IMG/VR virus record: IMGVR_UViG_2740892015_000011
Location: 1 to 44,382 of that record
DNA length: 44,382 nt
Source: a virus
Taxonomy: Duplodnaviria > Heunggongvirae > Uroviricota > Caudoviricetes
Direction: 5' to 3' (one strand)
Positions 18,357 to 41,237 of the stretch are shown here, in pieces. How positions within the stretch are numbered: the first letter of the stretch is position 1; each line of letters begins with the position of its first letter. Position numbers and translations under genes: made by a program. The notes beneath the pieces were generated by a model that saw only the letters and a list, made by a program, of their open reading frames with translations, was not told where the DNA came from and did not search any database.

Positions 18357-20486
18357 TTATTTCGGCAGGAGTTGCGATATTCGCTTACGTTTGACCGGCG
18401 CTGGTTCTTCAATAACCGCACCCGGCAGCTCGTAATTGATTTTTTCTTCCTGTCCAACTGGCGCTGGCAGGAACTTATCCGGATCGGCTTCGAGGTTGGC
18501 GGCCCGGACGTTGAGTTTTAACCCCATATGTTTGAGACCGCACAGCGCGGCATAGCTGTAAACGAGGCAGTCAAGCGCTTCGTTAGCTCGTCCTGGTATT
18601 GCTTCCCAGATACTGTACCGCTGCCCGGAAATGACTTTGTAAACCAGTCGCTCCGCCAGCAGCTGATTGAAGTACCCGAGATCGCGATCGTCAGGAAAAT
18701 GCATATAACCCGCAGCGGCGGCGCCAGGTTTGGGTGGCTCAAGATGCAGGCGACCGCGTATCACGTCTTTCGCTGAGTTAACCCCCAGAATGACAGGGCG
18801 GAAACTGGCTTTGCTTTTCGATGATGGTCGTTTGGTCGGCCAGACAGGATTGCGTTTGCCTCCCTGTGCAGACTCCCCCTTAATTGCCCAGACACGACGG
18901 CCAAGACGCTCTTTGGCGAATTCGTATACCTTCTGCGTATGGTGGCCGCCGGAGTCCATGCACGTTGCCATGATATTCAGGCCGCGCCCGTCACCACGTC
19001 GCCAGATCTGTTTCAGGTATGCATCCAGTCGCTTCCAGGGTTCTTCCGTCTCAAGGTCACCATAAATAACGTCATGCGCGACCGACCACGATTCTTCATC
19101 TCTCCCCCAGCCGGTGATCGTAATTTCGAAGCGATCGTCCTGGGTATCAACTCCAGCTGTTAACAATGCCACCCCGTCCGGAACGACGGCCGGAAATATT
19201 TCCCGGCGCGCCAGCAGAACATCAACAGGGAGCTGTTTCCCATGATTAGGTCGGTGCGGAAGCCCCATCTGGGTATTCCACCACGCCTGTTCCTTATCCG
19301 GATCGCCCTTCGCATCGATATATTTTTTCGCAATATCCGACGGCTTATCTTTTTGCCAGGGGCTGAAAAGCTTGGATGCCTGGTACCCCGCGTGGTGGTT
19401 ATCGACTGCCTCCTTTCCACAGGAGGGGCAGATTGCGCGATAGACCGCATGCCGTTCCGACTCTGACCATTGCCAGACCTTTTCAACGCTGCCCTCGTCT
19501 GCCGCCCGCCAGGCAAGGTCATAATCCATCAGCGGTGAGTGCCGCTCCCCGCAGCACTCAAATGGGCGCGTCTGATGCCATCGAATAGTGTGCAGAGCTC
19601 TGAGGCGCTGTCCTTCGGACCAGCCACTACCACAGCATTCGCAATAGAGCATCGCCGATTTAGTCAGGTGTTTATCTCCCTCTTTCGGCCACTGAACGTG
19701 TTTGAAAAAGTCGGGGAACTGGCGGTGGCCACAGTGCGGGCAAACCACAGATGCCCGGCGCTGATCGGAGTCGGCGTAGCTGTCAGCAATGCGGCTCTCA
19801 TCCTCCACCGTCGGCGAACAGGCGCGTACAGACAGCCAGGTCAGGCCAAATGTCGCTGTACGCTCTTCGGCCAGCGCAATTGGATCGCCTTCGCGGGTTA
19901 TCGGGTACTTGTCCACTTCATCCGCCAGCAGGACACGAATCGGACGACGCGCAAGGTTATCAGGGCTACCAGCACCCGCCAGCGCCAGAAATCCGCCAGT
20001 GAATGCCTTGTAAAGAATGGTTTCTTTCGAGCTTTTCTGTTTCGAATCACCGATGATTTTACGCAGTACCGGCGTCACCCTTACCAGCGGGCTAATACGC
20101 TCTTTCGAAAACTGTTCAGCGGCTTCTTCTTTCGGCTGCAGCAGCAGTATCGGACAAGGATCGAGGTGGGCAAAATAGCCAAAAAGGTTTTCCAGCAGTG
20201 CTGTCTTCATCAACTGGGTACAGCACATTACAGTGATGATATGAACCCCGGACTCCGTCGCGGCAAGCATCGGTCCGCGGGCAATTTCTACCGTCGATGT
20301 TTCCCAGTTTCCCGAAGTGCTCCCAGCCTCTTTTGCCAGCTTACGATAGTCATCTGCCCACTGCGGCACACTGATACGCGGCGGGGGTGTCCAGCCTTTG
20401 CGGACGCTTAATTCAAGACGCTCAATCTTCTGCCGGGTTAAACTCTGGCTCTCCGAGGACTGAGATGTGTTTGTGGACATGTTCAA
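18357..20486 (-). CDS. Terminase large subunit (lambda gpA-like)
   Basis: 709 aa downstream of the small subunit; true start may be a few codons inside the overlap with the small-subunit gene. Confidence 0.85.
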   Translation of the reverse strand: MNMSTNTSQSSESQSLTRQKIERLELSVRKGWTPPPRISVPQWADDYRKLAKEAGSTSGNWETSTVEIARGPMLAATESGVHIITVMCCTQLMKTALLENLFGYFAHLDPCPILLLQPKEEAAEQFSKERISPLVRVTPVLRKIIGDSKQKSSKETILYKAFTGGFLALAGAGSPDNLARRPIRVLLADEVDKYPITREGDPIALAEERTATFGLTWLSVRACSPTVEDESRIADSYADSDQRRASVVCPHCGHRQFPDFFKHVQWPKEGDKHLTKSAMLYCECCGSGWSEGQRLRALHTIRWHQTRPFECCGERHSPLMDYDLAWRAADEGSVEKVWQWSESERHAVYRAICPSCGKEAVDNHHAGYQASKLFSPWQKDKPSDIAKKYIDAKGDPDKEQAWWNTQMGLPHRPNHGKQLPVDVLLARREIFPAVVPDGVALLTAGVDTQDDRFEITITGWGRDEESWSVAHDVIYGDLETEEPWKRLDAYLKQIWRRGDGRGLNIMATCMDSGGHHTQKVYEFAKERLGRRVWAIKGESAQGGKRNPVWPTKRPSSKSKASFRPVILGVNSAKDVIRGRLHLEPPKPGAAAAGYMHFPDDRDLGYFNQLLAERLVYKVISGQRYSIWEAIPGRANEALDCLVYSYAALCGLKHMGLKLNVRAANLEADPDKFLPAPVGQEEKINYELPGAVIEEPAPVKRKRISQLLPK

Positions 20487-21139: not shown

Positions 21140-21281
21140 AAATCTGAAAGTTGTAGCTAGGAAAACACCGCGGCGCGCAATGCCCGTACCTTACAAAAGT
21201 CTCAGGAAGGACCCATTTTTTTAATGGCTTCGACCATTCGCTCCGACTATGATTATTCCTATTCAATACAAGGAGAATGTA

Positions 21282-21785
21282 ATGGGTAACAATATAATCA
21301 AAATAACTTTCGTAGCCGCAGTGCTGGCATCACCAATTGCTCATGCCCAGTGGGTAACTAATACTGAAGATGACCTTTTCTCTGGTGGTAAGAAAGCAAT
21401 GATGCTTGGCGAGGTTTCATCCGACAATGGCGCCATTGTGTTTGACTGCACTAAAGAAAAGCTATCGGCGGCATACGTTGAAATGGATAAAAGCACCGAA
21501 TCACTATCAGAGGTACCAATGGACCTGATAATGAAGGTCGACGGGAATACCGCAGTGAAGCTCGATGCTACCCTTTCAAGACGTAATGTTCAGAGCCTCC
21601 AGATTCAATCGGATGACGCGGACCAACTAAAAACAGTGCTTAAGCAGCTTCAGGGGGCGAAATCCAAAGTGTTAGTTGGTGTGCAAACAAAGGATGGCGG
21701 AAACCAGCATTCCATGTCAGCCAATGTTTCTGGATCGACAACTGCAGTAAACAGCTTCATAAAAGCTTGCGAAATTAACTTATAA
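21282..21785 (+). CDS. Secreted (signal-peptide) protein of unknown function; moron candidate
   Basis: AAGGAG RBS then MGNNIIKITFVAAVLASPIAHA-QW... (signal peptide with AHA cleavage motif); opposite strand to the late operon; AT-rich. Confidence 0.5.
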   Translation: MGNNIIKITFVAAVLASPIAHAQWVTNTEDDLFSGGKKAMMLGEVSSDNGAIVFDCTKEKLSAAYVEMDKSTESLSEVPMDLIMKVDGNTAVKLDATLSRRNVQSLQIQSDDADQLKTVLKQLQGAKSKVLVGVQTKDGGNQHSMSANVSGSTTAVNSFIKACEINL

Positions 21786-22515: not shown

Positions 22516-22776
22516 TTAACCCACCACCGGCCCGGATGTACTCGTTGCTGTTGAGGCCGGTGCAGCTGCTGCATCTGTCTGGATTTGCTTAAGTCGGACC
22601 TGAACCAGCTCTTCCACTTTATCGGCTTCTGCTTTTGCTGCAGCAGCTGCCTCTTCCGCTTTCGCCAGGGCGTGGGCTTTGAACCAGTCACGGATTTTTA
22701 CCCAGCCGCCGGCGATGAGCAGAAACGCACTGGTCCCCGCAGAAAAATAGAGCAGAACACTATCAAAGAACGTCAT
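22516..22776 (-). CDS. Small membrane protein in the lysis cassette
   Basis: 86 aa, N-terminal hydrophobic segment then Ala-rich helix; ATGA overlap with the upstream gene. Confidence 0.3.
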   Translation of the reverse strand: MTFFDSVLLYFSAGTSAFLLIAGGWVKIRDWFKAHALAKAEEAAAAAKAEADKVEELVQVRLKQIQTDAAAAPASTATSTSGPVVG

Positions 22777-23321
22777 TTTGTTTTTCCTTGCCTGAGTTGT
22801 TCGGCCTGCCGTATGGCGGCCAGTTGATTGTTAGCTTTCTCGATTCCAGCCAACAGCGGTTCTATCCAGAGAACGGTCTGACAGTACGTCAGTTGGCCGG
22901 GGGAAGTGGCGCTATTACCGCCTTTGTCAGCTCCGGCGGTAGCGGTGTGCATTGCGCTGGCACGTAGACTGTTCGTGTAGTTGAGCAGCCCGTTAGCGAT
23001 ATGAGCAGGCACAGGGTAATCACATGTTTTTTCACGGCGGAGTATCTCGCGATATTCAATGACGGTGGTTTCCGCTTTGGCGTCTACCGCGGCGTTATCA
23101 TCCACGGTGCCGGTGGCCATCGCACTGAATGCCTGGCTTTCGGCTGCCTGCTGCTGAATGACTTTTGCCTGCATCAGGACATTCGCATCAGCAATATCAG
23201 CACGACTGCTGTTACTCGCGTAGCGGGATCCAAAAAATAATCCAAGCCCTGCCACCAGCAGGATCAGGAATATGATGATGGTGGCGCGCGTTTCGGCAGT
23301 CACTGGTCTATCCCCCAGCAC
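22773..23321 (-). CDS. Rz-like i-spanin candidate
   Basis: 182 aa, N-terminal transmembrane helix (IIIFLILLVAGLGLFF) then helical periplasmic region; directly after the endolysin; GTG start. Confidence 0.4.
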   Translation of the reverse strand: MLGDRPVTAETRATIIIFLILLVAGLGLFFGSRYASNSSRADIADANVLMQAKVIQQQAAESQAFSAMATGTVDDNAAVDAKAETTVIEYREILRREKTCDYPVPAHIANGLLNYTNSLRASAMHTATAGADKGGNSATSPGQLTYCQTVLWIEPLLAGIEKANNQLAAIRQAEQLRQGKTK

Positions 23322-23839
23322 GCCAGCGCGCTTTCCTGGTCACGCCGCTCTATCTGACCGTAGCAGCCATTCTTCTGGCCTTTGGTCAGACGGCAGTCAC
23401 GCCCACCGTCTTTAATCCACCAGCGGATGGCCTCACAAGCTCCTTTCCGGTCACCAGCATTGATGCGCTGGTAGAATGTCGATGGATAGCATTTCCCTGG
23501 GCCAATGTTGTACGGGCAGAAGGATGCAATGCCTACCTTTTGCGGCGCTGTCAGTGGGACCTTGATATTCCGATCTACCCAGGCAAGCGCTTTGTCACGC
23601 TCAATCGCGTTCACTTTCTTGCATTGCGCCTCGGTGGTGGTCATGTCTTTTACAACACGTTTGCCATCGATAACTGTAACGCCATGGCAAAGCGACCAGA
23701 CGCCACCTGGATCCATGACAGCCACAAGAGCGTTGCCCTCCTTCTCACTGATGAATTGATCGAACAGTACAGGAGCTGAAGCACCAGCGGCGATCAGGGA
23801 TAGCATGGCTGCGCTGAGTTTGGTTTTTGTAGATGCCAT
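23300..23839 (-). CDS. SAR endolysin (phage-21 R-type lysozyme)
   Basis: N-terminal signal-anchor LSAAMLSLIAAGASAPVL; ...GDRKGACEAIRWW... resembles P21 R (GDIKGACDQLRRW). Confidence 0.75.
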   Translation of the reverse strand: MASTKTKLSAAMLSLIAAGASAPVLFDQFISEKEGNALVAVMDPGGVWSLCHGVTVIDGKRVVKDMTTTEAQCKKVNAIERDKALAWVDRNIKVPLTAPQKVGIASFCPYNIGPGKCYPSTFYQRINAGDRKGACEAIRWWIKDGGRDCRLTKGQKNGCYGQIERRDQESALACWGIDQ

Positions 23840-24090
23840 TACTCACGCTCCGTAACGACAGCTTTACCGTGATTTGCAGCTTTCTCAATTGCGCGGGTCT
23901 GACGCCTCTGGAAATACAGGTTCGTAAAATACGTAGCAATGCCAATCACGATACCGCTGATGACGGCTACCTTGTTCCAGTCAAGCTTGTACAGCCAGTC
24001 ATATACACGAAACAGCCCGGTACAAATAAGACCGCCTGACGTGCAATACGAGGCTGCAGAAAAAATTTTCTCAGGCATGATTCTATGCAT
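23839..24090 (-). CDS. Class II holin / pinholin (phage-21 S-like) with dual-start motif
   Basis: ORF track 23839..24240; real start at internal MHRIMPEK (Met codons at 24090 and 24078); ...GIVIGIATYFTNLYFQRR resembles S21 ...GFLTYLTNLYFK; ATGA overlap with the endolysin. Confidence 0.65.
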   Translation of the reverse strand: MHRIMPEKIFSAASYCTSGGLICTGLFRVYDWLYKLDWNKVAVISGIVIGIATYFTNLYFQRRQTRAIEKAANHGKAVVTERE

Positions 24091-24154
24091 TCCACACCTC
24101 CGGTCTCGGGGTGTTATTGAGGTAATAAAAAAGGCCGCTATCGCGACCTCACGT

Positions 24155-25207
24155 TTATTCCCCTGCCAACGCCCGTATTTCCCCCAACGTCTGATTAAAC
24201 CTTTCCTCTTCGAGTTCAACGCCAATAGCCTGGCGGCCAAGTTCCAGCGCGACTTTCACGGTCGAACCGGACCCCATAAAGAAATCAGCCACCACATCAC
24301 CAGGCTTACTGCTGGCGTTGATGATCTGCCGCAACATGTCAGCGGGTTTTTCGCATGGGTGTTTACCTGGGTAAAACTGAACGGGTTTATGTGTCCAGAC
24401 GTCGGTATAAGGAACGGATACGGAAACAGAGAAATGCCGCCGAAGTGATTTGTACTCTTCGAGCAGCTCTGAATATTTGCGATTCAACGAATGCCACAGA
24501 GCCACCAGCTGGTGGTGTGGTGTTGCCAGTTCGCCGTTCTGGTGTTTTTCGATGGCTACCTGCGTGAAAAGGGACTGAAGATTCCGGTAGTCTGATTCAT
24601 TCGGTAATTGCCACTGGCTACCGCTGAACCAGTGAGACACCATGTTCTTCTTTCCAGTCGCATCGGCTATTTGTTTTGAGGTTATGCCAAGCGCTTCACG
24701 TGCATCCCGGAAATAAGAAATTAGGGGAGTCATTACATGCTGCTTCAGCTCGCTTCCCTTCTCAGCGTACCCGTCGCTCTTTGGTTTATACGGCCCCTGG
24801 TAATGCTCAGCGAACAGGATGCGCTCTGTTGCAGGGAAGTAAGAGCGCAGGCTCTCTTTATTACAGCCATTCCAGCGGCCCGACGGTTTAGCCCAGATGA
24901 TGTGGTTCAGGACGTTGAACCGCTCACGCATCATGATCTCAATGTCTGCCGCCAGACGGTGACCTGAGAAAAGATAAAGACTGCCGGCAGGTTTAAGCAC
25001 TCGCCAGAATTGTGCGAGGCACATATCAAGCCAGCGAAGATAATCCTCATCCCCTTTCCATTGATTGTCCCAGCCGTTGGGTTTCACTTTGAAGTAAGGC
25101 GGATCCGTGACTATCAGGTCAATGGAGTTATCAGGGAGAGTTGCGATGTATTGCAGGCTATCAGCGTTGACTAACTCAACACTGTTTATAATTACAGTAT
25201 TTTTCAT
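24155..25207 (-). CDS. DNA methyltransferase, amino-methyltransferase beta class (N6-adenine or N4-cytosine), orphan
   Basis: DPPY motif near the N-terminus (LIVTDPPYF) and motif I near the C-terminus (DFFMGSGST); no adjacent restriction gene. Confidence 0.75.
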   Translation of the reverse strand: MKNTVIINSVELVNADSLQYIATLPDNSIDLIVTDPPYFKVKPNGWDNQWKGDEDYLRWLDMCLAQFWRVLKPAGSLYLFSGHRLAADIEIMMRERFNVLNHIIWAKPSGRWNGCNKESLRSYFPATERILFAEHYQGPYKPKSDGYAEKGSELKQHVMTPLISYFRDAREALGITSKQIADATGKKNMVSHWFSGSQWQLPNESDYRNLQSLFTQVAIEKHQNGELATPHHQLVALWHSLNRKYSELLEEYKSLRRHFSVSVSVPYTDVWTHKPVQFYPGKHPCEKPADMLRQIINASSKPGDVVADFFMGSGSTVKVALELGRQAIGVELEEERFNQTLGEIRALAGE

Positions 25208-25373
25208 AGATCAGTAAGCGTAACTCTGATAGGCTCACTATGCTTTTGCGCTAAAGCGGTGGGCCTTGGTTAGCTTGTGACCTGAAAGCATGAGCTGATG
25301 GCTGGTGGGTGCTCCAACATCCACCAGCCGCCCATTTTCACAGCAAAATACCTCCGAAATGGAGGTGCGAAGG

Positions 25374-25400
25374 CATAAAAAAACCCCGCTTAAGCGAGGT
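25374..25400 (-). terminator. Rho-independent terminator downstream of the two-gene cassette
   Basis: Minus strand reads CCTCGC-TTAA-GCGGGG followed by TTTTTTT. Confidence 0.45.
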
Positions 25401-25416
25401 TATTTCGAATAGATAA

Positions 25417-25821
25417 TCAAGCAGCAGGTTCGGATGGATAAACCTGCTTATACATCTGCTGAAGGGTGTCAATAGCTTTGTTAGCCATTATCAATATAGC
25501 TTCCGCATCAGCCTTACTTAAAGTTCTATCAAGCTCGTAATCTGCCCATTTACGTCGGATATGCAAATGTCTCAGCATTGTTCCCATAGAAATGAGTTTC
25601 ATTTTTTCAAACGGCTCATTTCCTTTTAACCATGCATCATTTGTAAGATAGTCGCGAACAGCTTGGTGTGACGACTTGTTTGGGCATTTCTCAAGCTTAT
25701 CAAGCGTTTCATGATAAACTCCATAATACGCTCGACCAATGGCGTTTCTGTAACCGATTTCATCGTTGTGAGAAATGCATTTACCAGCAAAAACAATAAA
25801 ATCTTTCCCCGATACGCTCAT
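25417..25821 (-). CDS. Unknown protein B of AT-rich cargo cassette (134 aa)
   Basis: Start ATG overlaps the stop of gene A (TGATG); contains RAYYGVYH, which fits the Rx4-6H pattern of HEPN nucleases only at its upper limit (Rx6H) and at an unusual N-terminal position (not verified); AT-rich. Confidence 0.5.
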   Translation of the reverse strand: MSVSGKDFIVFAGKCISHNDEIGYRNAIGRAYYGVYHETLDKLEKCPNKSSHQAVRDYLTNDAWLKGNEPFEKMKLISMGTMLRHLHIRRKWADYELDRTLSKADAEAILIMANKAIDTLQQMYKQVYPSEPAA

Positions 25822-26576
25822 CAGTAAATCCCTCTTTTTTCATCGCTTTGGAACCAGGATGTAAAAGGGCTGTTCCGATAACTATCATCTGAGAGCAAAA
25901 CCAACAGTTCCATGTTCATTTCAGCTAAAACCTGCGGATCAGCAGTTTGGGCTCTAACGATGAATGCATTGTCATCATCTCCACCAAGATAATAGCTAAC
26001 ACTTGAACAGTTAATACCGCGCTTGTTCGCAATCTCTTCAGCTTGATCGCAAAGGGCTTCTAGTTCTCGAGAAGAAAGACGGGTAGCGTTTTTGAAATCA
26101 ACAATCTGTTCAGCCATATAATTTCCCTGATTGATTATATCCTCTCGCTCTTGGCCATCATAAAGAGCAGCCATTTTGAGGGAGAACTTTTTAACCAACT
26201 TGTCGTTGCCGATACAAAATGCAGCGTTTCTTGCTACAAGCCTCAGTTCATGTGAAGGGAAAAGCTCAACTATTCTAAACAACTCAACGCGATGCTCATA
26301 GTTATGAGCCGAACGAGAAAGATACGCCAAGTAGTTTTGTGCGATCGTTGGACTCCCAGAGCTCATCGCGTCTTTGAATAAACGTACTGCATCAGAGTGA
26401 CGCCCGAGAGTTCCATTAAGCCATGCATACGCATGTGCGCGCTCACTTATTGGAAGTTTAGCAATGTCGTGCTCAATTTCCGCAATAGTGTCTGTATCCG
26501 GGACTTCTCCCTTCTGGAAGTAATCGAGGATTGTTGCAAGCAGTTCTTGTTCTTTTGACTCAGGCTGTCCTGACAT
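25821..26576 (-). CDS. Unknown protein A of AT-rich cargo cassette (about 251 aa)
   Basis: ORF track start at 26597 is a TTG; first ATG (MSGQPESKEQ...) at 26576; no recognisable catalytic motif; translationally coupled to gene B. Confidence 0.5.
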   Translation of the reverse strand: MSGQPESKEQELLATILDYFQKGEVPDTDTIAEIEHDIAKLPISERAHAYAWLNGTLGRHSDAVRLFKDAMSSGSPTIAQNYLAYLSRSAHNYEHRVELFRIVELFPSHELRLVARNAAFCIGNDKLVKKFSLKMAALYDGQEREDIINQGNYMAEQIVDFKNATRLSSRELEALCDQAEEIANKRGINCSSVSYYLGGDDDNAFIVRAQTADPQVLAEMNMELLVLLSDDSYRNSPFTSWFQSDEKRGIY

Positions 26577-26919
26577 AATTTTCCCGAAGAAAACCAAATT
26601 CTGTATGTTTTCAATAGCTTCACTGGATAGGTTTTTATATTGCTGTCATCAGTATTGAAGCTTTTACGGGATTGTACAGGACCATCAGCGTTCTACTTGT
26701 GCATAAGAATTTAATAAACCTACAGACTTATCCACAGAAAAAAGAGTTATCAACAAAAAAAGTTATTCACAACTTAACTAATAGCAAAATATTGTTGATA
26801 AGCTGTGCGTAATTATCATATCCATCAAACTTACGCACATTAGAGCCTTGTGTTGCCTATCCATCGTTTTTTCCTATCAAAACGAAACAACATGCTTTTC
26901 TGCGATTAAAAAAGTATTC

Positions 26920-26953
26920 CGCAAAATTAAAAAACCCGCTCACTGGCGGGTTT
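26920..26953 (-). terminator. tR'-like rho-independent terminator downstream of the Q-like gene
   Basis: Minus strand reads CCCGCC-AGTGA-GCGGG followed by TTTTTTAATTTT, about 90 bp downstream of the Q-like stop. Confidence 0.5.
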
Positions 26954-27045
26954 ATATACTTTTGGCAACATATCAAATTAGCTTCAAATATCGCTTATTT
27001 TGTTGCATTTTGCAAGCCTGATTGAAGACGTTAGTGAAATTTACT

Positions 27046-27759
27046 TCACATTTCTACCACTTTAACTTCCTCATACTCTTCGTACCGCGCCAGGCTTTCA
27101 CATAACGCCAGGCTGTCCATTTCCACGAAAGCTGCTTTAAATGCTGCCCAGTGAGCAGCGTATACCCTAAGCCAGGTTGAACGCTCCACGCTCACCATGC
27201 GGGCCAGTGCCGCCCCCGCATACTCCTGGTACGTATCGTTATTGCGTGATGCAGCAACTTCCTGGGCCGCGAGCCAAACCAGCCCCACTAATTTTTTTGT
27301 GACTCTGTCCTGGAGCTTCTTACTCCCCTGCTGATGCTGAAACTGTGCCCAAACGTACTGGCACATTAAGGTCTGGTACCGGAAAGACAGATCATATCCA
27401 TAGCAATACCGAACCCACGCCTGCAGATGCTCTCCAAGTCCATTCACCGAGCGGCGCCACGCAGAACTCGCAAACTCGGCATCCTTCATAGGGGGTAATG
27501 GGCGTCTACGGCTTCTTGTCTCCAGAACATAAAGCGGAGTGGCCAGCGTTTTTACAACCTTCGCTCCACAACATTCCCCACCCTCCATGACTATTTCTGG
27601 ATGGTGCCGGGGATACTTATTTTTATCTGCTGGTGGATGCTCACTGAACGCCTGCAGCTGTCCCTTCGTCGATCCTGAGAAATCGGCCAGCGCGCGGCGC
27701 AATTCAATACGGGTATATTCGAGTTCTTGTAAATTCATAATGCTCAGCGCTCCATACAA
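27046..27759 (-). CDS. Late-gene antitermination protein Q candidate
   Basis: 237 aa, last regulatory-region gene before the terminator and lysis genes; assignment is positional. Confidence 0.4.
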   Translation of the reverse strand: MYGALSIMNLQELEYTRIELRRALADFSGSTKGQLQAFSEHPPADKNKYPRHHPEIVMEGGECCGAKVVKTLATPLYVLETRSRRRPLPPMKDAEFASSAWRRSVNGLGEHLQAWVRYCYGYDLSFRYQTLMCQYVWAQFQHQQGSKKLQDRVTKKLVGLVWLAAQEVAASRNNDTYQEYAGAALARMVSVERSTWLRVYAAHWAAFKAAFVEMDSLALCESLARYEEYEEVKVVEM

Positions 27760-28821
27760 TTACGCTTTTGTTATTACGCCGATCGCCAACGCTCGATTCA
27801 TAAACCGGAACAGCAGCTCCAGCTGAGTACCGTGTTTTTTCTCAAACGCTGCTAAATCGGCATGTAGTTTGTCGTGACACTCTCTGCACAGAGGGAACAC
27901 GAACAAATCATGTGCTTTTGTGGCGGTACCGCCCATACCGTGACCAATGACATGGTGTGGATCATCCGCTGGCCGCCGGCAACCTTCACACGGCTGGGTT
28001 TTAACCCACCGGGTATAATCCTCATTCACCCACCGACGATGTTTCGGACGTAACATGAATGATTCAGGAGATTCTGGATCCGCATGCAGAGCCAGAATCT
28101 TTGGCTGGTCGTAGACCACTTCCTGATTTGCTCCATGCTTTAATTTCGCAGCCGTGGCCGCAGGGGTGACCTTCTTCTGCAAAATGCTTTTTGCCGGGGG
28201 CATCGGCACAATGTCACTTTCACGATAAACGGATAAAAAAGGCTCATCCGGCATGCGGAGTGCGCGTTGTGCCATCCTTTCTGTGATTGCATCAGCAATG
28301 CCCGAGTAAACGGCCCACCAGCACAATTCGCCGAGGGATAGTTCGCGCTCGGTGTTGTAGCCAAGCGCAGACAGGATCGAATTGATCAGCCAGTTGATGA
28401 GATTTCGCCGGGCCAGTTCTGCCAGCGCCGCGGTGGTCTGCTCGCGCAGCTGGTTATCGCAATGCCAGCAGAGCAGCATTGACCCTGGAGGGTGGCGCAT
28501 TGTTACCAGCTCGCGGTGGTGATAGTCAGCGTGCGGGTACTGGCATTCCTTAACGTTGCGCTCTAACCATGAGTCCAACGCGGATAAACCGCCTGCGGCG
28601 CGGATAACCCTCTCGTCGGAGAAGAATTCCTCGAGGGACTTATCTTCTGCCAGCGGCTGCCTCGCATCAGGGACGAGCCCCGACGGAAGCCCAGCCATAC
28701 TTTTTGGCTGAGGCTCCACCAGCACACGCCCCTGCTGGAACAGTGACATCAGATCGCTACCTGGCTTTAACAACACAAGCCCCAGGCGCGGAACAGTCTC
28801 GGCTGTAAACAGTCCTCTCAC
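27760..28821 (-). CDS. Nin-region protein with C-terminal HNH / zinc-finger motif
   Basis: C-terminal CEGCRRPADDPHHVIGHGMGG...CRECHDKLH. Confidence 0.5.
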   Translation of the reverse strand: MRGLFTAETVPRLGLVLLKPGSDLMSLFQQGRVLVEPQPKSMAGLPSGLVPDARQPLAEDKSLEEFFSDERVIRAAGGLSALDSWLERNVKECQYPHADYHHRELVTMRHPPGSMLLCWHCDNQLREQTTAALAELARRNLINWLINSILSALGYNTERELSLGELCWWAVYSGIADAITERMAQRALRMPDEPFLSVYRESDIVPMPPAKSILQKKVTPAATAAKLKHGANQEVVYDQPKILALHADPESPESFMLRPKHRRWVNEDYTRWVKTQPCEGCRRPADDPHHVIGHGMGGTATKAHDLFVFPLCRECHDKLHADLAAFEKKHGTQLELLFRFMNRALAIGVITKA

Positions 28822-29510
28822 GCGGCATGCCCCTTAGCGATGTGTGCCGTCCACAGGCCGCCGATCCACTCGATGCCTTTAGGTGTAAAACGCGCCTGGC
28901 TGAATGCGTAGTTTGTTTCACTCGTAGTGCCGGTTTTCACTTCAAACCGCCCGGCAGCAATATGCTGGTGCCGCGGTGTCAGTACTCCACCGAGACGGTA
29001 CAAAATGTCGCTCTCAATGAGGAACAAGCGGAAATCTGTTTCTTTGGCCTGCAATAGCTTTGCCACCTGGCGGAATGACATTGAGCCTTTGGCAGTACAG
29101 TACCGATCGACAAACTCAACTTTCGGCGCGGCAGCGGCTAACTGCTGGCTGAGTTGTTCTTTCTGCTCGGCCAGATCCGCGGCGAGACGTAATGCCTCCG
29201 GCAATGTTTGCGGGACACTTACGGCCTGGCTGTTCTCCAGCTCTTGCCAGCGATCGACAACAGCGGCGGTAAATTCTGGCGACAGCCTAGCGACGATCAC
29301 CAGAGAATCACGTTTGTTGAACCAATACTCCTCGTAGGTTTGCCCGTTTTGCGGGTGTGTGTAGGGGGTGTGCGCCAACGGCGCGGTTAAAATACCAGCA
29401 GATGCAAGGCGCTCAGCTGAGCGCTTCACATCACCATGTTTGCTCTGTACCAGCCTGGCAATTTCACGGCTGGACATTGTCACAACACCCTTTGCGGTTA
29501 ACTGATTCAT
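28818..29510 (-). CDS. Rha-family phage regulatory protein / antirepressor
   Basis: ORF track to 29558; probable start MNQLTAKGVVTMSSREIARLVQSKHGDVKRSAERL, which resembles the Rha N-terminal domain. Confidence 0.55.
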   Translation of the reverse strand: MNQLTAKGVVTMSSREIARLVQSKHGDVKRSAERLASAGILTAPLAHTPYTHPQNGQTYEEYWFNKRDSLVIVARLSPEFTAAVVDRWQELENSQAVSVPQTLPEALRLAADLAEQKEQLSQQLAAAAPKVEFVDRYCTAKGSMSFRQVAKLLQAKETDFRLFLIESDILYRLGGVLTPRHQHIAAGRFEVKTGTTSETNYAFSQARFTPKGIEWIGGLWTAHIAKGHAA

Positions 29511-29524
29511 GCTATTTCTCCATA

Positions 29525-31462
29525 TCAGGCGGCTGCACCCGCCTTTTGATTTGCACATAATTCAGGAAGATTTGCTTCTACCAGCGCACGAGCGAACGGC
29601 GGCGGTACTGCGTTACCACAGCGCGCTACCTGCTTGTCTTTGGCGTAACGATTGCCGCGATAGTCCTGATCGATAACGTAGCCGTCAGGGAAGCCCTGCG
29701 CCTTATAAAGCTCATGCGGTTGCAGCATGCGCATTCCGATATCGACGATCTGGTACTTAACCCCCTCGATCGTCACCAGCCATTCATCCTCGCTATCACC
29801 GCAGTAGGTTTCGAGGAATGTCCGGACCTCGCCAACGTGCTGGCCACCAGCGGTAATAGTCGGCATAGGTGTATCCATGGTCTGACCGTCGCGGCAGGTT
29901 CCGCGTAGCTTCACCAGGTGCGACGCAACTACCGCGTGGTGATCAACAGTAGTGACTGAGTGGGCAGGCTCATCCATACCAACACCCGGCCCCGTGTAAT
30001 TCCCACCATAGTGCTTCGCCAGGAACGCGCTCACCGTTGCAAACTTATTACCACCAGCAGTGACCGTGCCGAGCGGGTTATTCAGTTGAATAACACGCGG
30101 TTCTTGCCCTGGGCGTTCGCCGTACCCCATCTGGATCAGTGTTGGAGTTACCAGCTGCGACTTACCGCCACCACCAGCAGTAATCGTCGCGCTCGGTTCG
30201 TCAGCCCTGTGCCCAACACTGGCGCCAAACTGGCGGGCGATGACCGGAGCAACAACGCACGCGCGGGACTGCTTGAGGATTGTATGAGCGGGTTTATCCA
30301 GCGGGCGCGGCTTTGCCTGGTACTCACTGCCGCCATTGCCAGCCAGGAACGGTGTCAGGGCGGCCTCAACTACGCCAAGCGCATGCCCATTCCCGCCTGG
30401 GCGCGCCGACGTACCAGCGGTGACAGTTGGAACCGGCTCGGTCACTGGCTGCCCGGTGGCCCCGGTGCGGAATTTAGTAAGATGCGGTACCGCCAGCGCG
30501 TAGCCATGCTTTTTAGTGATGGTCTGCAATGGCTCTAACAACGATTGCCCGCGGAAACAGTCATAACCTCCTTTCGTCGTGGTGTGGTTACACTTCACGA
30601 TGAAAGGTGATGCACTTTCGATAACAAAGCGCTGGATGCCGCGCGCGATACGTTTGAGCGTATTTTCCGCCAGCGGCTTTTTGCGGTCGAAGATGGAACG
30701 GGCCGGGATGTTCCAGTCAATGCACTCCGCCGCGGTACGCCATGGCGCCAGCTTGCCGCTTTGTACTTCCAGTGATTTTGGATCCCCATGAGTCGCTTCA
30801 GGCCAATGAATCTTGCGGCCGTCACAACGCATGACCATGAAGAAACGCTTTCTGATCGTCGGCGCGCCGTAGTCACAAGCGCGCAGCTCACGATAATCGA
30901 CCTCATAGCCAAGCCCGGCGATCAGCTGTTGCGCCTGCTGGCCGTGCGGCTCAATGGCAAGAAATTCACAAACCTCAGCCAGTGCTGGGTGATTCGCCGC
31001 GATACCAGTCGACAGCATGCCGACAAATGCCTCAAATGTTTCACCAGCACGCTCAGGATCCGGGCGTAATTCTTCATCCAGCAGCGGGCCCCATGTCTTA
31101 AATTCTTCGACGTTCTCCAGCATCATGACGCGGGGACGTACTGACAGCGCCCAGCGCAGGACAATCCACGCCAGCCCGCGAATCTCTTTCTTAACCGGCT
31201 TAGCGCCCTTCGCTTTGGAAAAGTGGCGGCAGTCAGGGCTAAACCAGGCCAGACCAACAGGTTTACCGCTGGTGGCTGCACTTGGGTCAACGTCAAACAC
31301 CGACTCGCAATAATGCAGCGTGTCCGGGTGATTCGTCTTATGCATCGCAATAGCGTTTTCGTCGTGGTTGATAGCGATATCCACGCTACGCCCGATCGCC
31401 AGTTCAATGCCGGTACTCGCGCCACCACCACCAGCAAAGTTATCAACGATAATTTCACGCAT
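29525..31462 (-). CDS. DNA (cytosine-5) methyltransferase, large phage-type
   Basis: Motif I IVDNFAGGGGASTG, catalytic FSPDCRHFSKAKG (Pro-Cys), ENV motif MMLENVEEF; probable start MREIIVDNF... (ORF track extends to 31516). Confidence 0.8.
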   Translation of the reverse strand: MREIIVDNFAGGGGASTGIELAIGRSVDIAINHDENAIAMHKTNHPDTLHYCESVFDVDPSAATSGKPVGLAWFSPDCRHFSKAKGAKPVKKEIRGLAWIVLRWALSVRPRVMMLENVEEFKTWGPLLDEELRPDPERAGETFEAFVGMLSTGIAANHPALAEVCEFLAIEPHGQQAQQLIAGLGYEVDYRELRACDYGAPTIRKRFFMVMRCDGRKIHWPEATHGDPKSLEVQSGKLAPWRTAAECIDWNIPARSIFDRKKPLAENTLKRIARGIQRFVIESASPFIVKCNHTTTKGGYDCFRGQSLLEPLQTITKKHGYALAVPHLTKFRTGATGQPVTEPVPTVTAGTSARPGGNGHALGVVEAALTPFLAGNGGSEYQAKPRPLDKPAHTILKQSRACVVAPVIARQFGASVGHRADEPSATITAGGGGKSQLVTPTLIQMGYGERPGQEPRVIQLNNPLGTVTAGGNKFATVSAFLAKHYGGNYTGPGVGMDEPAHSVTTVDHHAVVASHLVKLRGTCRDGQTMDTPMPTITAGGQHVGEVRTFLETYCGDSEDEWLVTIEGVKYQIVDIGMRMLQPHELYKAQGFPDGYVIDQDYRGNRYAKDKQVARCGNAVPPPFARALVEANLPELCANQKAGAAA

Positions 31463-32789
31463 TGACGGCCCCCTGCATGCTGTTGAAGAGACCACCAGCG
31501 GTCGTGATAATTTCACTCGTCGGCATACGTTCGAGCCACAGCTGGTTGATATTGGCTTTCAGCTTGTTCTGTTGTGAAACAGGTAGAGCGTCAGCACCTT
31601 CAATCTGGTTAAACACCAGGCCAACCTCAAGAGGCCAAACGCGCGATTCGTTTAACGCCTTGTCCTTTGATTCCTGCGTCTCACGTACATGAGCGCGGAT
31701 CCCCCGAATATTTGACCATTTGGCTTTATCCAGGCTTTCCATGGTCGCGATGAATTCACTGTGGTTGATGCCGTATTCTTTCGCAGATTCAACGGCAACC
31801 GTGCGAAGCCGCTCTGACATGTCTTGTTTCACGTCATCGCTATCAAAGGGCAATGTTTCCAGCCATGCATTAACACCCACCAGGATGCTCTCGCTGATCA
31901 GCTTTTTCGCTCTATCGATCGTCAGCGGTGAAACATTGGTAAATTCAGGGTTTTCCAGAGAGTCGGCAGCCCAGGTATGACCAAACTTTGACTCGCTGAA
32001 GGTGTACTCATCTTTCTCGCCGAACGCCGCGACAACACAGGCCCAAGCTTCTACACCACTGGTTTCCAGAATGGCTTTTTGGGTTAATGGCAGTTCTGCC
32101 TCTGATTTCTCCGGCACTACCTCAGCGTCCAGCTCCGGCGCCGCATCAGTTTGCGTTCTTCCCACGGCAAACTGGGCCAGCGACATCGAAGCACGGCCTT
32201 TGGCCTCCAGGTCGGTGCGGTTGATGTAACTGAAACGTTCACCCCGCCATGTTTTGTCGAAGACCACGATAGCGCCAGCAAAAAATGCGCTGGTTGGCTG
32301 CTGCTTTTCGTCTTTCGGCACGAACCATGTAGGAAGATCGAAACCAATTCGGCCACGGATGAATGTGACGTGATCTGCTTCTTCCGGCCACCACGTCTCA
32401 CTCGTCGCAGACTTAATGAGAAAAACGTACCGCCCCCCCTTTTCTCGCATTGCCATAGCGTGGTTAATGATGTGGGTCATTCCGGTAATGGCCTGCTTGT
32501 CGTGATACTGAGAGCGGCTGTAAGGCGGGTTGCCAAACCCGGCACCACCGAGTTCTGCCAGACGCTCAGACCAATCCTGTGTCAGGGCATTATCTTCAGC
32601 CGTGTACCATGCTGGGCACTTCGCGTTGCTGTCGTCGGCAAAAAGGTCCAACACCAGAGGGCCGAACATCGCATTGATACCCCAAAACAACAGATCCGGA
32701 GTGCGCCATTGATCGCCGACCTCTTTCAACTCGTGGGCTGGTCTTGAACGCAGTTCAACCAGCGCACGGCAGTATTTGCTTTCAATCAT
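31455..32789 (-). CDS. Phage Dam-like N6-adenine methyltransferase domain fused to a ~260-aa C-terminal domain of unknown function
   Basis: N-terminal WRTPDLLFWG, DLFADD and GFGNPPYSRS (NPPY) motifs; remainder unrecognised. Confidence 0.6.
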   Translation of the reverse strand: MIESKYCRALVELRSRPAHELKEVGDQWRTPDLLFWGINAMFGPLVLDLFADDSNAKCPAWYTAEDNALTQDWSERLAELGGAGFGNPPYSRSQYHDKQAITGMTHIINHAMAMREKGGRYVFLIKSATSETWWPEEADHVTFIRGRIGFDLPTWFVPKDEKQQPTSAFFAGAIVVFDKTWRGERFSYINRTDLEAKGRASMSLAQFAVGRTQTDAAPELDAEVVPEKSEAELPLTQKAILETSGVEAWACVVAAFGEKDEYTFSESKFGHTWAADSLENPEFTNVSPLTIDRAKKLISESILVGVNAWLETLPFDSDDVKQDMSERLRTVAVESAKEYGINHSEFIATMESLDKAKWSNIRGIRAHVRETQESKDKALNESRVWPLEVGLVFNQIEGADALPVSQQNKLKANINQLWLERMPTSEIITTAGGLFNSMQGAVNA

Positions 32790-33718
32790 CCTCTGAACCC
32801 CTCTGGAATTTTGGTATCTACCGGGCCGAACTTCATCGGGTCATGTTTCTTCTCGCCCCAGCTTTCACGCGGGGGACGGCCTTTTTTATCCCAGCGGATC
32901 CCGCTTTGCAGATAACCCTCAAATTTTTTCGGCCCAAAGAGAGTTTCAGGCCGCATGTACTGATACTGCGCATCGTTGCCGTTCCAGTGTTCATGCTTGA
33001 GGTCAATCACCAGCGTCAAGTCGCTGACGGTATAACCTTCACGCAGACGCGCACGTATGTTTTCCAAAGAGGTTTTAGATTTCTGGTACCGGGAGCCGCT
33101 AACCTGGTTCAAATGAGTTAAAACCAGGATGGCGTTATCAGTGATCAACACTTCAGGGTCTGGTTGCGGCGCAACCGGACAAGAGGGGTTAATGATCTGT
33201 TTGTGATGATCTGAGTAATGATCTGTATAGAGAATAGGTTCCGCGACTTCGCGGTTAGGGTTCTGCGGTTCTGCGTTTTCGGTTCCGTGATTTTGCGGAA
33301 TAGGTTCCGCGACTTCGCATTTCCCGTTCCGCGATTCTGCGGAATCCAGTGTTACAGGGAATAAAACGTTAATTAGCGCTTCGCCGTTAATGCGGTAATG
33401 CGTTTTTTTTGTACCATTTACCTGGCGCTGGGTCTTTTGAACTACGTCAGGAAGCCAACGAGTGCAAATCTTGTTTACCAGGCGCTGTACCTGATCTTCA
33501 CTTACCCCTCGAATCTCAGCGGCAAGCTCACTGTGTTCTTTGTAGAACCAGCCATCATTCAAGTCGGATTTACCCGACCAGAACACAAGTTGGTTTAGAA
33601 CAGCACCTAAGGCATGCGCCTGCTGGTCACCTGAGAAAAAATCGAGGTAAGGCACCGGAATGGTGATGCAGTTCCGTTGTCCCGATAGCGATTGAACGAT
33701 TTCAAATATCTGGCTCAT
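32786..33718 (-). CDS. Replication initiation protein (lambda O-like organisation, iterons within the gene)
   Basis: 310 aa; central linker encodes repeated EVAEPI peptides from the DNA iterons; first gene downstream of the cro-side regulators. Confidence 0.55.
   Translation of the reverse strand: MSQIFEIVQSLSGQRNCITIPVPYLDFFSGDQQAHALGAVLNQLVFWSGKSDLNDGWFYKEHSELAAEIRGVSEDQVQRLVNKICTRWLPDVVQKTQRQVNGTKKTHYRINGEALINVLFPVTLDSAESRNGKCEVAEPIPQNHGTENAEPQNPNREVAEPILYTDHYSDHHKQIINPSCPVAPQPDPEVLITDNAILVLTHLNQVSGSRYQKSKTSLENIRARLREGYTVSDLTLVIDLKHEHWNGNDAQYQYMRPETLFGPKKFEGYLQSGIRWDKKGRPPRESWGEKKHDPMKFGPVDTKIPEGFRG
33191..33345. repeat. Candidate replication origin: ATGATCTG x3 followed by an iteron array (AATAGGTTCCGCGACTTCGC x2 plus TTCTGCGG-type repeats)
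   Basis: Direct repeats at about 33192, 33206, 33218 (ATGATCTG) and 33234..33253 / 33299..33318 (20-mer), with shorter related copies between; all inside the replication gene. Confidence 0.5.
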
Positions 33719-34945: not shown

Positions 34946-35572
34946 ATGGAAACGGTTGGTCAGCGCATTAAAGCCCTACGCAGGGTTACAAAAACCTCTC
35001 AAAAAGAACTGGGTAAGTTCTGCGGAGTGAGTGACGTAGCAGTGGGTTATTGGGAAAAGGATGTGAATATCCCAAACGGAGAATCGCTGGTTAAGCTGGC
35101 TAAATTCTTCAATACATCAATAGATTACATTCTTTACGGCACTGAATTTGAAGGGACCCTCATAACTAAAATGAGGCGTGTGCCCGTGATTTCTTGGGTT
35201 CAAGCTGGGCAGTTTACGGAATGTAAGGCCGCTGATTTATTCAGTGATGTCGATAAATGGGTTGAAACCTCACTACGCATTGGGGATAGCTCGTTCGCTT
35301 TAGAGGTCAAAGGGGATTCAATGACCAATCCAAATGGCCTCCCAACAATTCCTGAAGGGGCAACCGTTATTGTCGATCCAGATGCCGAACCCCTTCATGG
35401 CAAGATTGTTGTTGCGCGTATTGATGGCACTAACGAAGCGACTGTTAAAAAACTGGTCATTGATGGCCCACAAAAATTTTTAGTCCCACTAAATCCTCGC
35501 TACCCCAACATCCCGATCAATGGTAACTGCCTCATTATTGGAGTAGTTAAAGGCGTTCAGTACGAACTCTAA
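34946..35572 (+). CDS. cI: CI-type prophage repressor (HTH-XRE plus S24 LexA-like peptidase domain)
   Basis: N-terminal HTH (IKALRRVTKTSQKELGKFCGVSDVAVGYWE) and C-terminal S24 motifs (KGDSM ... VKK). Confidence 0.85.
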   Translation: METVGQRIKALRRVTKTSQKELGKFCGVSDVAVGYWEKDVNIPNGESLVKLAKFFNTSIDYILYGTEFEGTLITKMRRVPVISWVQAGQFTECKAADLFSDVDKWVETSLRIGDSSFALEVKGDSMTNPNGLPTIPEGATVIVDPDAEPLHGKIVVARIDGTNEATVKKLVIDGPQKFLVPLNPRYPNIPINGNCLIIGVVKGVQYEL

Positions 35573-36962: not shown

Positions 36963-37793
36963 ATGTCCCAGATTTTAGACGGCAATGCCCTGCAGCAGGT
37001 GAAAGACCTTGTTCTTTCCGGTTATCACCTTACTGCAGTTAAAGAAACAGCATGCCCTACTGCCCTGCTCCCTGATGGCGTAAACGTAGAGAGCCTTGAG
37101 CGTTTCGATCTGGAGCGTTTTCGTTTCCGCGGTGCCATGACCACAACCAGCATTCCTGACTTTGTTCGTTATGCAGCTGGCTATGCCAACGAAGCTGAAC
37201 CGGCGCGATGCTTTATCGATGCTGATAACATGACCGCACGCTCCGTGTTCAATATCGGTACTCTGGCTAACCCTGGCCATGCTGATAACGTCGCATCTAT
37301 CACCCTCAAAAAGACAGCGCCATTCCGAGCCCTACTTCAGGTAAATGGCGATCGACTGGGCCAGAAGGAAATTGCTGAATGGCTGGAGGACTGGGCCGAC
37401 TTCCTGAGCGCATTTGATGCCGACGGGAATGTGTTGTCCATCGCGCAGGCAGCTGGTGCCGTTCGTCGCGTCAATATCAAACAAGTCTCGGAAGCAGCTC
37501 ATGAAGACGAAGATTTTGGCGGCAGAAAGTCCCTGATGCAGAGCGTTGAAGCCAGCAGTAAAGACGTGATGCCTGTCGCCTTCGAGTTCAAATGCGTGCC
37601 GTATGAAGGCCTGGGCGAACGCCGCTTTAGCCTGCGTAACAGCCTGCTTAAAAGCGGGGAACCGGTGTTTGTACTCCGCATCGTTCAACTGGAAGCCCAG
37701 GAAGAAGCTATCGCCAACGAGTTCCGTGACCTGCTGATCGAGAAGTTCACCGACAAGCCGGTTGAAACCTTTATCGGTAACTTTAAAGCGTAA
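36963..37793 (+). CDS. YfdQ-like phage protein of unknown function
   Basis: 276 aa; size and neighbourhood (followed by an HD hydrolase) match the yfdQ-yfdR pair of CPS-53-type prophages. Confidence 0.4.
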   Translation: MSQILDGNALQQVKDLVLSGYHLTAVKETACPTALLPDGVNVESLERFDLERFRFRGAMTTTSIPDFVRYAAGYANEAEPARCFIDADNMTARSVFNIGTLANPGHADNVASITLKKTAPFRALLQVNGDRLGQKEIAEWLEDWADFLSAFDADGNVLSIAQAAGAVRRVNIKQVSEAAHEDEDFGGRKSLMQSVEASSKDVMPVAFEFKCVPYEGLGERRFSLRNSLLKSGEPVFVLRIVQLEAQEEAIANEFRDLLIEKFTDKPVETFIGNFKA

Positions 37794-40209: not shown

Positions 40210-40430
40210 TGCCCAGTAAACTCACACAGCGGCGTCTTCGCCGACTTAAAGCCGATGTCGCATGGTGGCGTGCAGAGGCTGAAGATTGCAGAACACGTCT
40301 GCTGGAGCTGGCGGGGGAAATCGATAGAGTACGAGCACAGATCGTCAGAGTACCAATGCCGGTGGTTGTCCCCTCGGCTTTAATCGCAGAATTAGCAATG
40401 GAGAAAGCAGTTGAACGACTTAATGATTGA
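40209..40430 (+). CDS. Hypothetical early protein
   Basis: 73 aa, coiled-coil-like, operon context. Confidence 0.3.
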   Translation: MPSKLTQRRLRRLKADVAWWRAEAEDCRTRLLELAGEIDRVRAQIVRVPMPVVVPSALIAELAMEKAVERLND

Positions 40431-40983
40431 CCTTGAATCAATGGGAAAAAAGCCAAACGCGCCGATCGTCTCAATTGGTGCCGTCTTTTTTAACCCTCAT
40501 ACAGGTGAACTTGGCCAAGAATTCTATACGGCCGTCTCGCTTGAAAGCGCAATGGATCAAGGGGCGGTACCGGATGGAGAAACGATTCTTTGGTGGCTAA
40601 AACAAAGCCCTGAAGCGCGCTCAGCTATTTGCGTTGATGATGCGATGCATATCACTGATGCACTGTCGGAACTTAGCCATTTCATTCACCGGCATGCATA
40701 TAATCTCAAATACATGAAGGTCTGGGGTAACGGGGCCACGTTTGACAATGTGATTCTGCGCGGAGCTTACGAACGCGCCGGACGCATTTGCCCGTGGGAA
40801 TTTTGGAACGATCACGATGTACGCACGATTGTTACCCTCGGTCGCAGTGTTGGTTTCGATCCGAAGCGTGACATGCCTTTCATTGGCGATGTTCACAACG
40901 CCCTGGCTGATGCGCGCCATCAGGCAAAATATGTGTCAGCAATTTGGCAGAAACTTATCCCTGCCACCAGCACCAACGAGTAA
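40411..40983 (+). CDS. DnaQ-like 3'-5' exonuclease
   Basis: Exo motif I-like DLESMG near the N-terminus and a distal HNALADA motif. Confidence 0.5.
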   Translation: MNDLMIDLESMGKKPNAPIVSIGAVFFNPHTGELGQEFYTAVSLESAMDQGAVPDGETILWWLKQSPEARSAICVDDAMHITDALSELSHFIHRHAYNLKYMKVWGNGATFDNVILRGAYERAGRICPWEFWNDHDVRTIVTLGRSVGFDPKRDMPFIGDVHNALADARHQAKYVSAIWQKLIPATSTNE

Positions 40984-41027: not shown

Positions 41028-41237
41028 ATGGCAAAGCTAATGAAAGCGAGTCTCTGGAGTAAGCGCGAATTTACCAAAGACTCCATTCCTGACAACCGTA
41101 CAATTAAACGTTGGGTCGAAAACGGATTACTCATGGGAAGGATTGTAGATGGTTCAGTTTTTGTCTATGAAACCGAAAAATGGGGAGTTGACTCAATTGT
41201 TAATCAGGCGGTACGTCAGTTAATAATTGAGGGTTGA
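41028..41237 (+). CDS. xis: Excisionase-like protein
   Basis: Start at internal MAKLMKAS preceded by GGAGAAGG; ...DNRTIKRWVENG... resembles lambda Xis (...SLETVRRWVRE...); immediately upstream of int with a 4-nt overlap. Confidence 0.5.
   Translation: MAKLMKASLWSKREFTKDSIPDNRTIKRWVENGLLMGRIVDGSVFVYETEKWGVDSIVNQAVRQLIIEG

Follow-up and report, generated by a model that had tools for sequence, protein, structure and literature searches.

The question raised by this locus is why a prophage should carry three DNA methyltransferases of different classes without a restriction endonuclease beside them, and what the long extension fused to one of them is. The window, i.e. the whole analysed stretch of 44,382 nucleotides (IMG/VR record IMGVR_UViG_2740892015_000011, Caudoviricetes), is almost entirely a lambda-like prophage. 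The three genes encode an adenine-N6 enzyme of 350 aa (24155..25207), a C5-cytosine enzyme of 645 aa (29525..31462) and a Dam-type protein of 444 aa (31455..32789); these genes and all their parts described below are located on the minus strand. An earlier note on the sequence had pointed out the three open reading frames (ORFs) as methyltransferases of different classes, and this was borne out by their matches to PF01555, PF00145 and PF05869, respectively, and by alignment and motif positions, which showed that the catalytic motifs are intact in all three. As it was stated, the finding is real but ordinary, because RefSeq and GenBank phage records already label all three genes as methyltransferases and near-identical copies of the region are known. 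The whole region can be found at about 96% identity in E. coli prophages (12 of 5426 complete genomes have at least 80% of it, and 49 have part of it), and phage Eeyore has a copy about 94% identical that spans 81% of the region. Moreover, clusters of several methyltransferases are common in phages. The most unusual feature, which had been overlooked, is an array of seven repeated units in the C5 enzyme. The best explanation of the locus as a whole, which we regard as fairly probable, is that the three methyltransferases have no restriction partner and act after induction, and comprise an M.EcoGII-type adenine enzyme, a C5 enzyme with an array of recognition modules, and a C5-associated tail module that is translated as the end of the Dam-type protein.

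The C5 enzyme belongs to a phage clade that can be named "SPDC" after its motif IV, and it matches PF00145 in three stretches (E 2e-20). Its N-terminal catalytic part (30839..31462) contains FAGGGG (residues 9-14; 31421..31438), SPDC (residues 75-78; 31229..31240), ENV (residues 116-118; 31109..31117) and PTIRKR (residues 201-206), and its C-terminal part with motifs IX and X (29528..29734) contains QGFP (residues 589-592) and GNAVPPP (residues 616-622). Alignment to solved C5 methyltransferases showed motifs I, IV, VI, VIII, IX and X to be all present and in the canonical order. FAGGGG and ENV had been correctly read before, whereas the reported Pro-Cys is actually S-P-D-C, with Asp in the usual place of Pro before the catalytic Cys, which is present; SPDC is invariant among the clade homologues. 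The ATG start codon gives the 645-aa form, which is also the form used by the RefSeq homologues, and a GTG at position 31516 would give 663 aa. More than 8000 homologues were found, the top 120 of which are all from Enterobacteriaceae.

Motifs VIII (residue 201) and IX (residue 577) of this enzyme are about 370 residues apart, and the region between them contains seven tandem units of the TL type (residues 306-560; 29783..30547), which were delimited by motif count and unit alignment: A (30449..30547), B (30308..30448), C (30203..30307), D (30098..30202), E (29978..30097), F (29888..29977) and G (29783..29887). Each unit is 30-47 aa long, with the TL motifs spaced 32-48 aa apart, and has the form (D/E)-x-P-x-x-T-(I/V)-T, after which come a variable loop of short length, a strand-like hydrophobic segment and an end that contains Gly. 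The TL motif was counted seven times in the enzyme, versus a mean of 0.78 in shuffled sequences (maximum 5). The approach based on motif and alignment was required because the units are too diverged for a self-BLAST of the variable region, which detected no repeats; a PDB sequence search with the repeat region gave no match. The form of the units corresponds to the core of the TL consensus that has been published for the target-recognition domains of C5 enzymes, P(STCA)PT(ILV)(TASV)x5-16H, which contacts DNA in M.HhaI and M.HaeIII (PMC2413257).

Comparison of the 120 close homologues revealed ten unit types in ten strictly collinear arrangements of 6-9 units: ABCDEFG (36), ABCDEFIG (33), ABCDFG (25), ABCDEFHG (9), ABDEFG (8), ABCDEFFG (3) and others. 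The variable region accordingly falls into length classes of 330, 334, 369, 385, 404, 417 and 420 aa, and the unit junctions are in register, as where the head of unit C is joined to the tail of unit D. More distant SPDC homologues have two units in Pseudomonas phage Dolphis and mycobacteriophage Piper2020, three in a Vibrio phage, five in Roseburia phage Jekyll, six in Myxococcus Mx4, and seven in Pectobacterium ZF40 and Pseudomonas F116. It can also be observed that clusters of two or three methyltransferases recur around the long SPDC C5 enzyme: in ZF40 (L004/L107), F116 (L008/L108) and Sansa (L009/L109), each with two or three adjacent methyltransferase genes, the C5 gene is flanked by one or two genes of other classes (gp20 in ZF40, p11 and p09 in F116, and 78 in Sansa).

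The C5 enzymes M.SPRI, M.Phi3TI and M.SPBetaI of Bacillus phages have multiple specificities, and the enzyme of the window resembles them in being phage-encoded and orphan, and in having a C5 core with an enlarged variable region of tandem TL units spaced by about 30-50 aa; its natural variants lack or have gained individual units, as in the Bacillus-phage enzymes. MtbP (M.SPBetaI) served as a positive control, in which two units and no more, spaced by 47 aa, were found with the identical pattern; unit F of the window, EPAHSVTTVDHHAV, is closely similar to one of them, EPAFTVNTIDRHGV. Papers from the Trautner laboratory reportedly describe a second target of MtbP and a rule of one domain for one target. 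The known target of MtbP is GGCC (PMC8270828). Unlike M.SPBetaI, the present enzyme has seven units instead of two, and its motif IV is S-P-D-C instead of P-C. The likeness to the Bacillus-phage family, as judged from these comparisons, is architectural, and we have not filed the enzyme as a member of it.

The extension of the Dam-type protein, described previously as an unknown fused domain of roughly 260 aa, is indeed present, and it is about 245 aa long (residues 200-444). Residues 1-199 (32193..32789) form a Dam-type adenine-N6 methyltransferase domain with NPPY at residues 87-90 (32520..32531) and a motif I-like DLFAD at residues 48-52. Full-length matches above the curated cut-offs were obtained for PF05869 (E 2e-43, residues 19-199, 148.4 bits vs a cut-off of 28.1) and TIGR01712 (203.8 bits vs 97.05), and in this respect the protein is a regular phage N-6-adenine-methyltransferase. 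It differs from the family in its composite extension; relatives of about 300 aa, with only the Dam domain and a tail, are common, and the 444-aa form with an additional middle module is rarer. No characterised close relative of the Dam-type enzyme was identified in the literature searched. Hia5/Hin1523, which was considered as such a relative, was rejected as an alpha-class enzyme with DPPY near residue 194.

No Pfam match of the extension was found even at E 10, no match to the whole 444-aa protein was found in a PDB sequence search, and fold searches assigned no fold to the modules of the extension. Alignment of homologues nevertheless shows that it is not a single domain of Dam; as read from these sequences, it is composed of a linker, an optional middle module and a tail of 62 aa, the conserved partner of which in the genome is the adjacent C5 gene. 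The linker (residues ~200-231; 32097..32192) is variable and predicted to be disordered (pLDDT below 50 for residues 1-34 of the modelled piece). The middle module (residues ~232-382; 31644..32096) is predicted to be all-helical; its homologues are 48-83% identical, it is absent from most of the Dam+tail relatives, and it belongs to no Pfam or PHROG family. The same module occurs at the C-terminus of ParB-HTH proteins; the context of a ParB-HTH protein with this module is a decayed prophage and is uninformative. In a full HMMER pass over 1.84 billion representatives, just 46 relatives were found. An additional observation from the related contigs is a natural 405-aa chimera (P0009), in which the middle module continues in frame into the C-terminal ~90 residues of the C5 enzyme, the tail and most of the C5 gene having been lost by deletion.

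The tail (residues 383-444; 31458..31643) is helical, with the pattern W-P-x-E-V ... I-N-x-h-W-L-E, and is 84-98% identical in hundreds of "phage N-6-adenine-methyltransferase" proteins of about 295-299 aa. It also occurs as a free-standing protein of 81-134 aa and on an unrelated methyltransferase, and 494 viral contigs in total encode it. The tail matches PHROG 16025, a group of 85-aa phage proteins labelled "DNA methyltransferase", and the free-standing members match it strongly. In contrast to this label, the tail has three predicted helices and is without methyltransferase motifs, and the label appears to come from association only.

The association of the tail is predominantly with the C5 gene. 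In the window, the stop codon of the Dam-tail gene and the start codon of the C5 gene share an 8-nt overlap, ATGCGTGA (31455..31462). The tail is usually followed by a long PF00145 gene whose start overlaps or abuts the tail stop codon, and the C5 gene lies directly downstream in 64 of the 80 related tail-bearing viral loci, 63 of which share the 8-nt overlap, with the remaining one overlapping by 35 nt. The C5 gene follows Dam+tail, another methyltransferase+tail and middle+tail proteins alike, as well as free-standing tails that are 35-47% identical; downstream of a Dam+middle protein that lacks the tail, there is no C5 gene. In ZF40 gp21, the tail is fused at the N-terminus of the C5 enzyme itself, where residues 2-54 correspond to model positions 3-55 in a gap-free alignment (13.4 bits, E 3e-6, a score not reached by any of 2000 shuffles). 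The C5 enzymes of ZF40, F116, Sansa and Mx4 are preceded by genes in which no tail module was found. Given this synteny and these fusions, the most apt view of the tail is that of a C5-associated module which, in this prophage, is translated as the last part of the Dam-type protein. Its task might be to dock Dam to the C5 enzyme, or it might act directly for the latter. In the literature searched, which did not include REBASE, neither multi-unit enterobacterial C5 enzymes nor an association of the tail with C5 enzymes was found.

Two further observations concern tail-bearing loci. In five of them (L033, L040, L041, L043 and L055), which cleanly lack the C5 gene, the tails share 86-100% identity with C5-linked ones, and an ORF of 246 aa, the size of the antirepressor gene of the window, follows 54-55 nt after the Dam-tail stop codon; this suggests that the loss of the C5 gene was recent and recurrent there. 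One free-standing tail (P0277, L102 3001..3264) carries an N-terminal zinc-ribbon-like CPFCG motif. This motif is matched weakly, over 12 residues only, by the Lar family of restriction-alleviation proteins (PF14354, E 0.0035), which might hint at an influence of tail proteins on restriction or modification.

The 350-aa enzyme is a member of the M.EcoGII family of beta-class adenine-N6 DNA methyltransferases (PF01555 N6_N4_Mtase, E 1e-43). Its motifs are in the beta-class order, with DPPY at the N-terminus (residues 35-38; 25094..25105), a central target-recognition region with a putative helix-turn-helix (~24497..24730) and FMGSG at the C-terminus (residues 310-314; 24266..24280), and the PF01555 match spans both ends. 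M.EcoGII, like M.EcoGI, is a non-specific adenine methyltransferase from a prophage of E. coli O104:H4, and it modifies adenine in any context, in both DNA and RNA (PMC5778455). In its published model, the Rossmann core is formed by both ends, and the recognition domain is helical and contains a helix-turn-helix (160-237); the layout of the 350-aa enzyme appears to agree with this model. BLASTP aligned the two enzymes over their full length (350 vs 349 aa) with 272 of 348 residues identical (78%), 87% positives and 2 gaps; a few residues of M.EcoGII may have been misread, as its sequence was machine-read from the supplement of PMC11551740. A weak HTH_3 match, below the cut-off, was found at residues 167-197 (E 1e-3), and this region aligns with M.EcoGII without gaps. 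The methyltransferase of phage 1720a-02, which a paper on M.EcoGII names as a close homologue, is 77% identical to the enzyme of the window, and those of SfV, phiP27, cdtI, mEp460 and many Stx2 phages are 78-82% identical. As is the case for M.EcoGII as well as M.EcoGI, this enzyme is encoded by a lambdoid prophage; unlike M.EcoGII, it differs in 22% of its residues, some of them inside the recognition region. Judging from this similarity, sequence preference is most likely slight or absent in its methylation of adenine. A lead to M.EcoGIX, with "SAY" specificity, was rejected, this being a plasmid-borne, single-strand-specific enzyme.

The time at which the three genes are expressed may be deduced from their positions. 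The C5 and Dam genes lie in the early-right operon, under repressor control. The M.EcoGII-like gene lies downstream of the gene for antiterminator Q (27046..27759; PF06323, E 1e-39), and a consensus scan placed terminator-like hairpins directly after its stop codon (24131..24150), between it and the preceding two-gene insert (25382..25401), and about 100 bp downstream of Q, in a tR'-like position (26932..26953), all on the minus strand; in the region as a whole, 14 terminator-like sites were found versus 3.6 expected. Because it is downstream of Q and has terminator-like hairpins on both sides, the M.EcoGII-like gene is probably expressed only after induction, late and in an antitermination-dependent manner. 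In the lysogen, M.EcoGI and M.EcoGII are reportedly silent, and their constitutive expression is reported to be harmful (PMC5778455). An epigenetic role in the lysogen, one of the two roles proposed earlier, is unlikely, since two of the genes are controlled by the repressor, the third lies downstream of Q between hairpins, and M.EcoGI and M.EcoGII are reportedly silent at that stage. The genes are thus expected to be silent in the lysogen, so the proposed comparison of the methylomes of lysogen and cured strain would give a false negative. The other proposed role, anti-restriction, is the best-supported reading and is sharpened, for one enzyme, by the 78% identity to M.EcoGII. After induction, the three methyltransferases would most likely modify the progeny phage DNA against restriction in the next host. 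The M.EcoGII-like enzyme would provide late-phase adenine methylation with little or no sequence preference, the C5 array would comprise recognition modules that together confer several target specificities or a relaxed one, and the tail, although read here as part of the Dam protein, would be an accessory or docking module for the C5 enzyme.

The neighbouring genes are consistent with the lack of a restriction partner. As the earlier note had claimed, no adjacent restriction endonuclease was found: scans of the neighbours with Pfam, PHROGs, NCBIfam and PADLOC gave no match to a restriction endonuclease or a defence effector, except for one marginal match (PADLOC PDC-M05B, E 0.009). An adjacent cognate endonuclease gene, as in type II restriction-modification systems, is thus not observed, and the neighbours are standard phage genes. 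The marginal match lies in the low-GC (0.40-0.43) insert of two genes between Q and the M.EcoGII-like gene (25417..26597, minus strand), which encode proteins of 134 aa (phrog_5176) and 258 aa (phrog_17809). In relatives the same slot is occupied by an SDH-family Clp-fold serine protease (some E. coli) or by small ORFs (phage Eeyore), and it looks like a variable moron or defence slot. The other gene of interest in this respect is the DUF968/HNH gene (27760..28821), a conserved early-right gene of this phage group.

Several observations weigh against the account proposed here. The identity of 78% to M.EcoGII is no guarantee of non-specificity, and small changes in the recognition region can alter specificity. 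The equation of a unit with a recognition domain rests on analogy; outside the core motifs, the C5 enzyme has barely any similarity to the Bacillus-phage enzymes (BLASTP with M.SPBetaI gives marginal segments, E 0.004-0.006), and its structure prediction, made with 25 close homologues, was unusable, with a mean pLDDT of 44 and about 20 in the array. The smallest C5-family members that were seen contain two units each, and those units that lie next to motif IX (F-, G- and J-like) are conserved across phyla, from Vibrio and Pseudomonas to Myxococcus phages. Regarding the tail, 15 of the 80 close tail-bearing loci and a divergent tail protein (P0282) lack a C5 gene downstream, and most of the distant members of the C5 clade have no detectable tail; the tail is therefore obligatory for neither partner. 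The two-unit minimum and the conservation next to motif IX fit a structural scaffold as well as they fit independent modules. A serious rival, possible although we hold the opposite view, is that the array forms one large target-recognition or DNA-clamping domain built of structural repeats, with a single or very short specificity, in which the number of units tunes fit or stability; the strictly collinear order of the units in every variant would agree with this. Internal units would, however, be lost more easily from a row of independent modules than from a packed domain, and single internal units (C, D or E) are absent in abundant intact variants, e.g. in 25 and 8 clusters of the 120. In addition, every unit has the DNA-contacting TL motif, and a real multispecific enzyme, M.SPBetaI, shows a like form and spacing of units. 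We read the array as a set of recognition modules because its units are gained and lost singly in natural variants, as in the multispecific Bacillus-phage enzymes, and by this analogy it most likely provides multiple or relaxed specificity. A much stronger form of this idea, which we consider doubtful, is that the SPDC C5 enzymes are hyper-multispecific, with each of the 6-9 TL units an independent reader whose shuffling reprograms the protected sites, and with the 62-aa tail as a dedicated partner needed for activity or control; if true, this would be a far larger and more widespread version of the Bacillus-phage multispecific principle, in clinically important hosts.

The extension of the Dam-type protein could also serve Dam itself, e.g. 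in DNA binding or target recognition, its adjacency to the C5 gene then reflecting a shared recombination module of mosaic phages. The order of motifs in the Dam domain, in which DLFAD precedes NPPY, would put a recognition domain C-terminally, the 15 loci just mentioned keep Dam+tail though the C5 gene is gone, and the tail-less C5 enzymes of distant phages fit this possibility too. We nevertheless regard it as rather improbable: the tail is found without the Dam domain, be it free-standing, on another methyltransferase or on the C5 enzyme; even such Dam-less tails, at identities as low as 35%, immediately precede a long C5 catalytic domain; neither the Pfam Dam profile (169 positions) nor the TIGR01712 equivalog model (165) includes the extension; and the middle module is optional. 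Finally, one of the methyltransferases could be the modification half of a restriction-modification or defence system, the nuclease of which would be encoded in the low-GC insert beside the M.EcoGII-like gene or by the DUF968 gene with its HNH-like motif. This we consider very unlikely, given that the libraries returned only the marginal match as a nuclease or defence candidate, that the insert slot is filled by unrelated genes in relatives that retain the methyltransferase, and that DUF968 occurs in relatives whether or not these have the C5 and Dam genes; besides, a non-specific adenine methyltransferase needs no cognate nuclease. Restriction-less modification of phage DNA after induction remains the reading that we prefer.

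The rest of the window is typical of a lambda-like prophage, with tail-fibre genes at the left end, the large terminase gene (18357..20486), lysis genes (22773..24240), an O-like replication gene (32786..33718; Phg_2220_C, with a DnaD-like N-terminal part), cII/Cro genes, a gene for a cI-like repressor (34946..35572) and one for a lambda-type integrase (41234..42421). Similar prophages are frequently found in E. coli, Enterobacter, Klebsiella, Citrobacter and Salmonella. The replication module apparently consists of the single O-like gene, whose stop overlaps the Dam start by 4 nt and which is not followed by a lambda-P, DnaB or DnaC-type helicase-loader gene. Between the terminase and lysis genes, within the late region otherwise encoded on the minus strand, there is a plus-strand ORF of 178 aa (21249..21785) that gave no match in Pfam and is possibly a further moron. 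The early-left region encodes, on the plus strand, a DUF2303 protein (36963..37793; E 4e-63) and an Rv2179c-like 3'-5' exoribonuclease (40411..40983; E 9e-72), the latter being an unusual accessory gene for a lambdoid prophage.

Each of the three enzymes is of a known kind. The departure from the described systems lies in the scale and natural modularity of the TL-unit array, found in a widespread enterobacterial prophage enzyme, and in the association of the tail with the C5 gene. The natural series of unit deletions (ABCDEFG, ABCDFG, ABDEFG etc.) is ready-made material for mapping units to sequences, and the engineering of methyltransferase specificity would also profit from a modular set of readers. 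The tail module presents itself as a concrete candidate accessory factor of methyltransferases, so far unrecognised. Enzymes of this type would not be visible in lysogen methylomes and are poorly detected by SMRT sequencing, which detects 5-methylcytosine (m5C) poorly, so they are probably under-reported. If the proposed account is true, the combination of a context-free adenine methylase and a many-target cytosine methylase in one phage would evade most methylation-sensitive restriction systems at one step, and such evasion would bear on phage host range, phage therapy and gene transfer.

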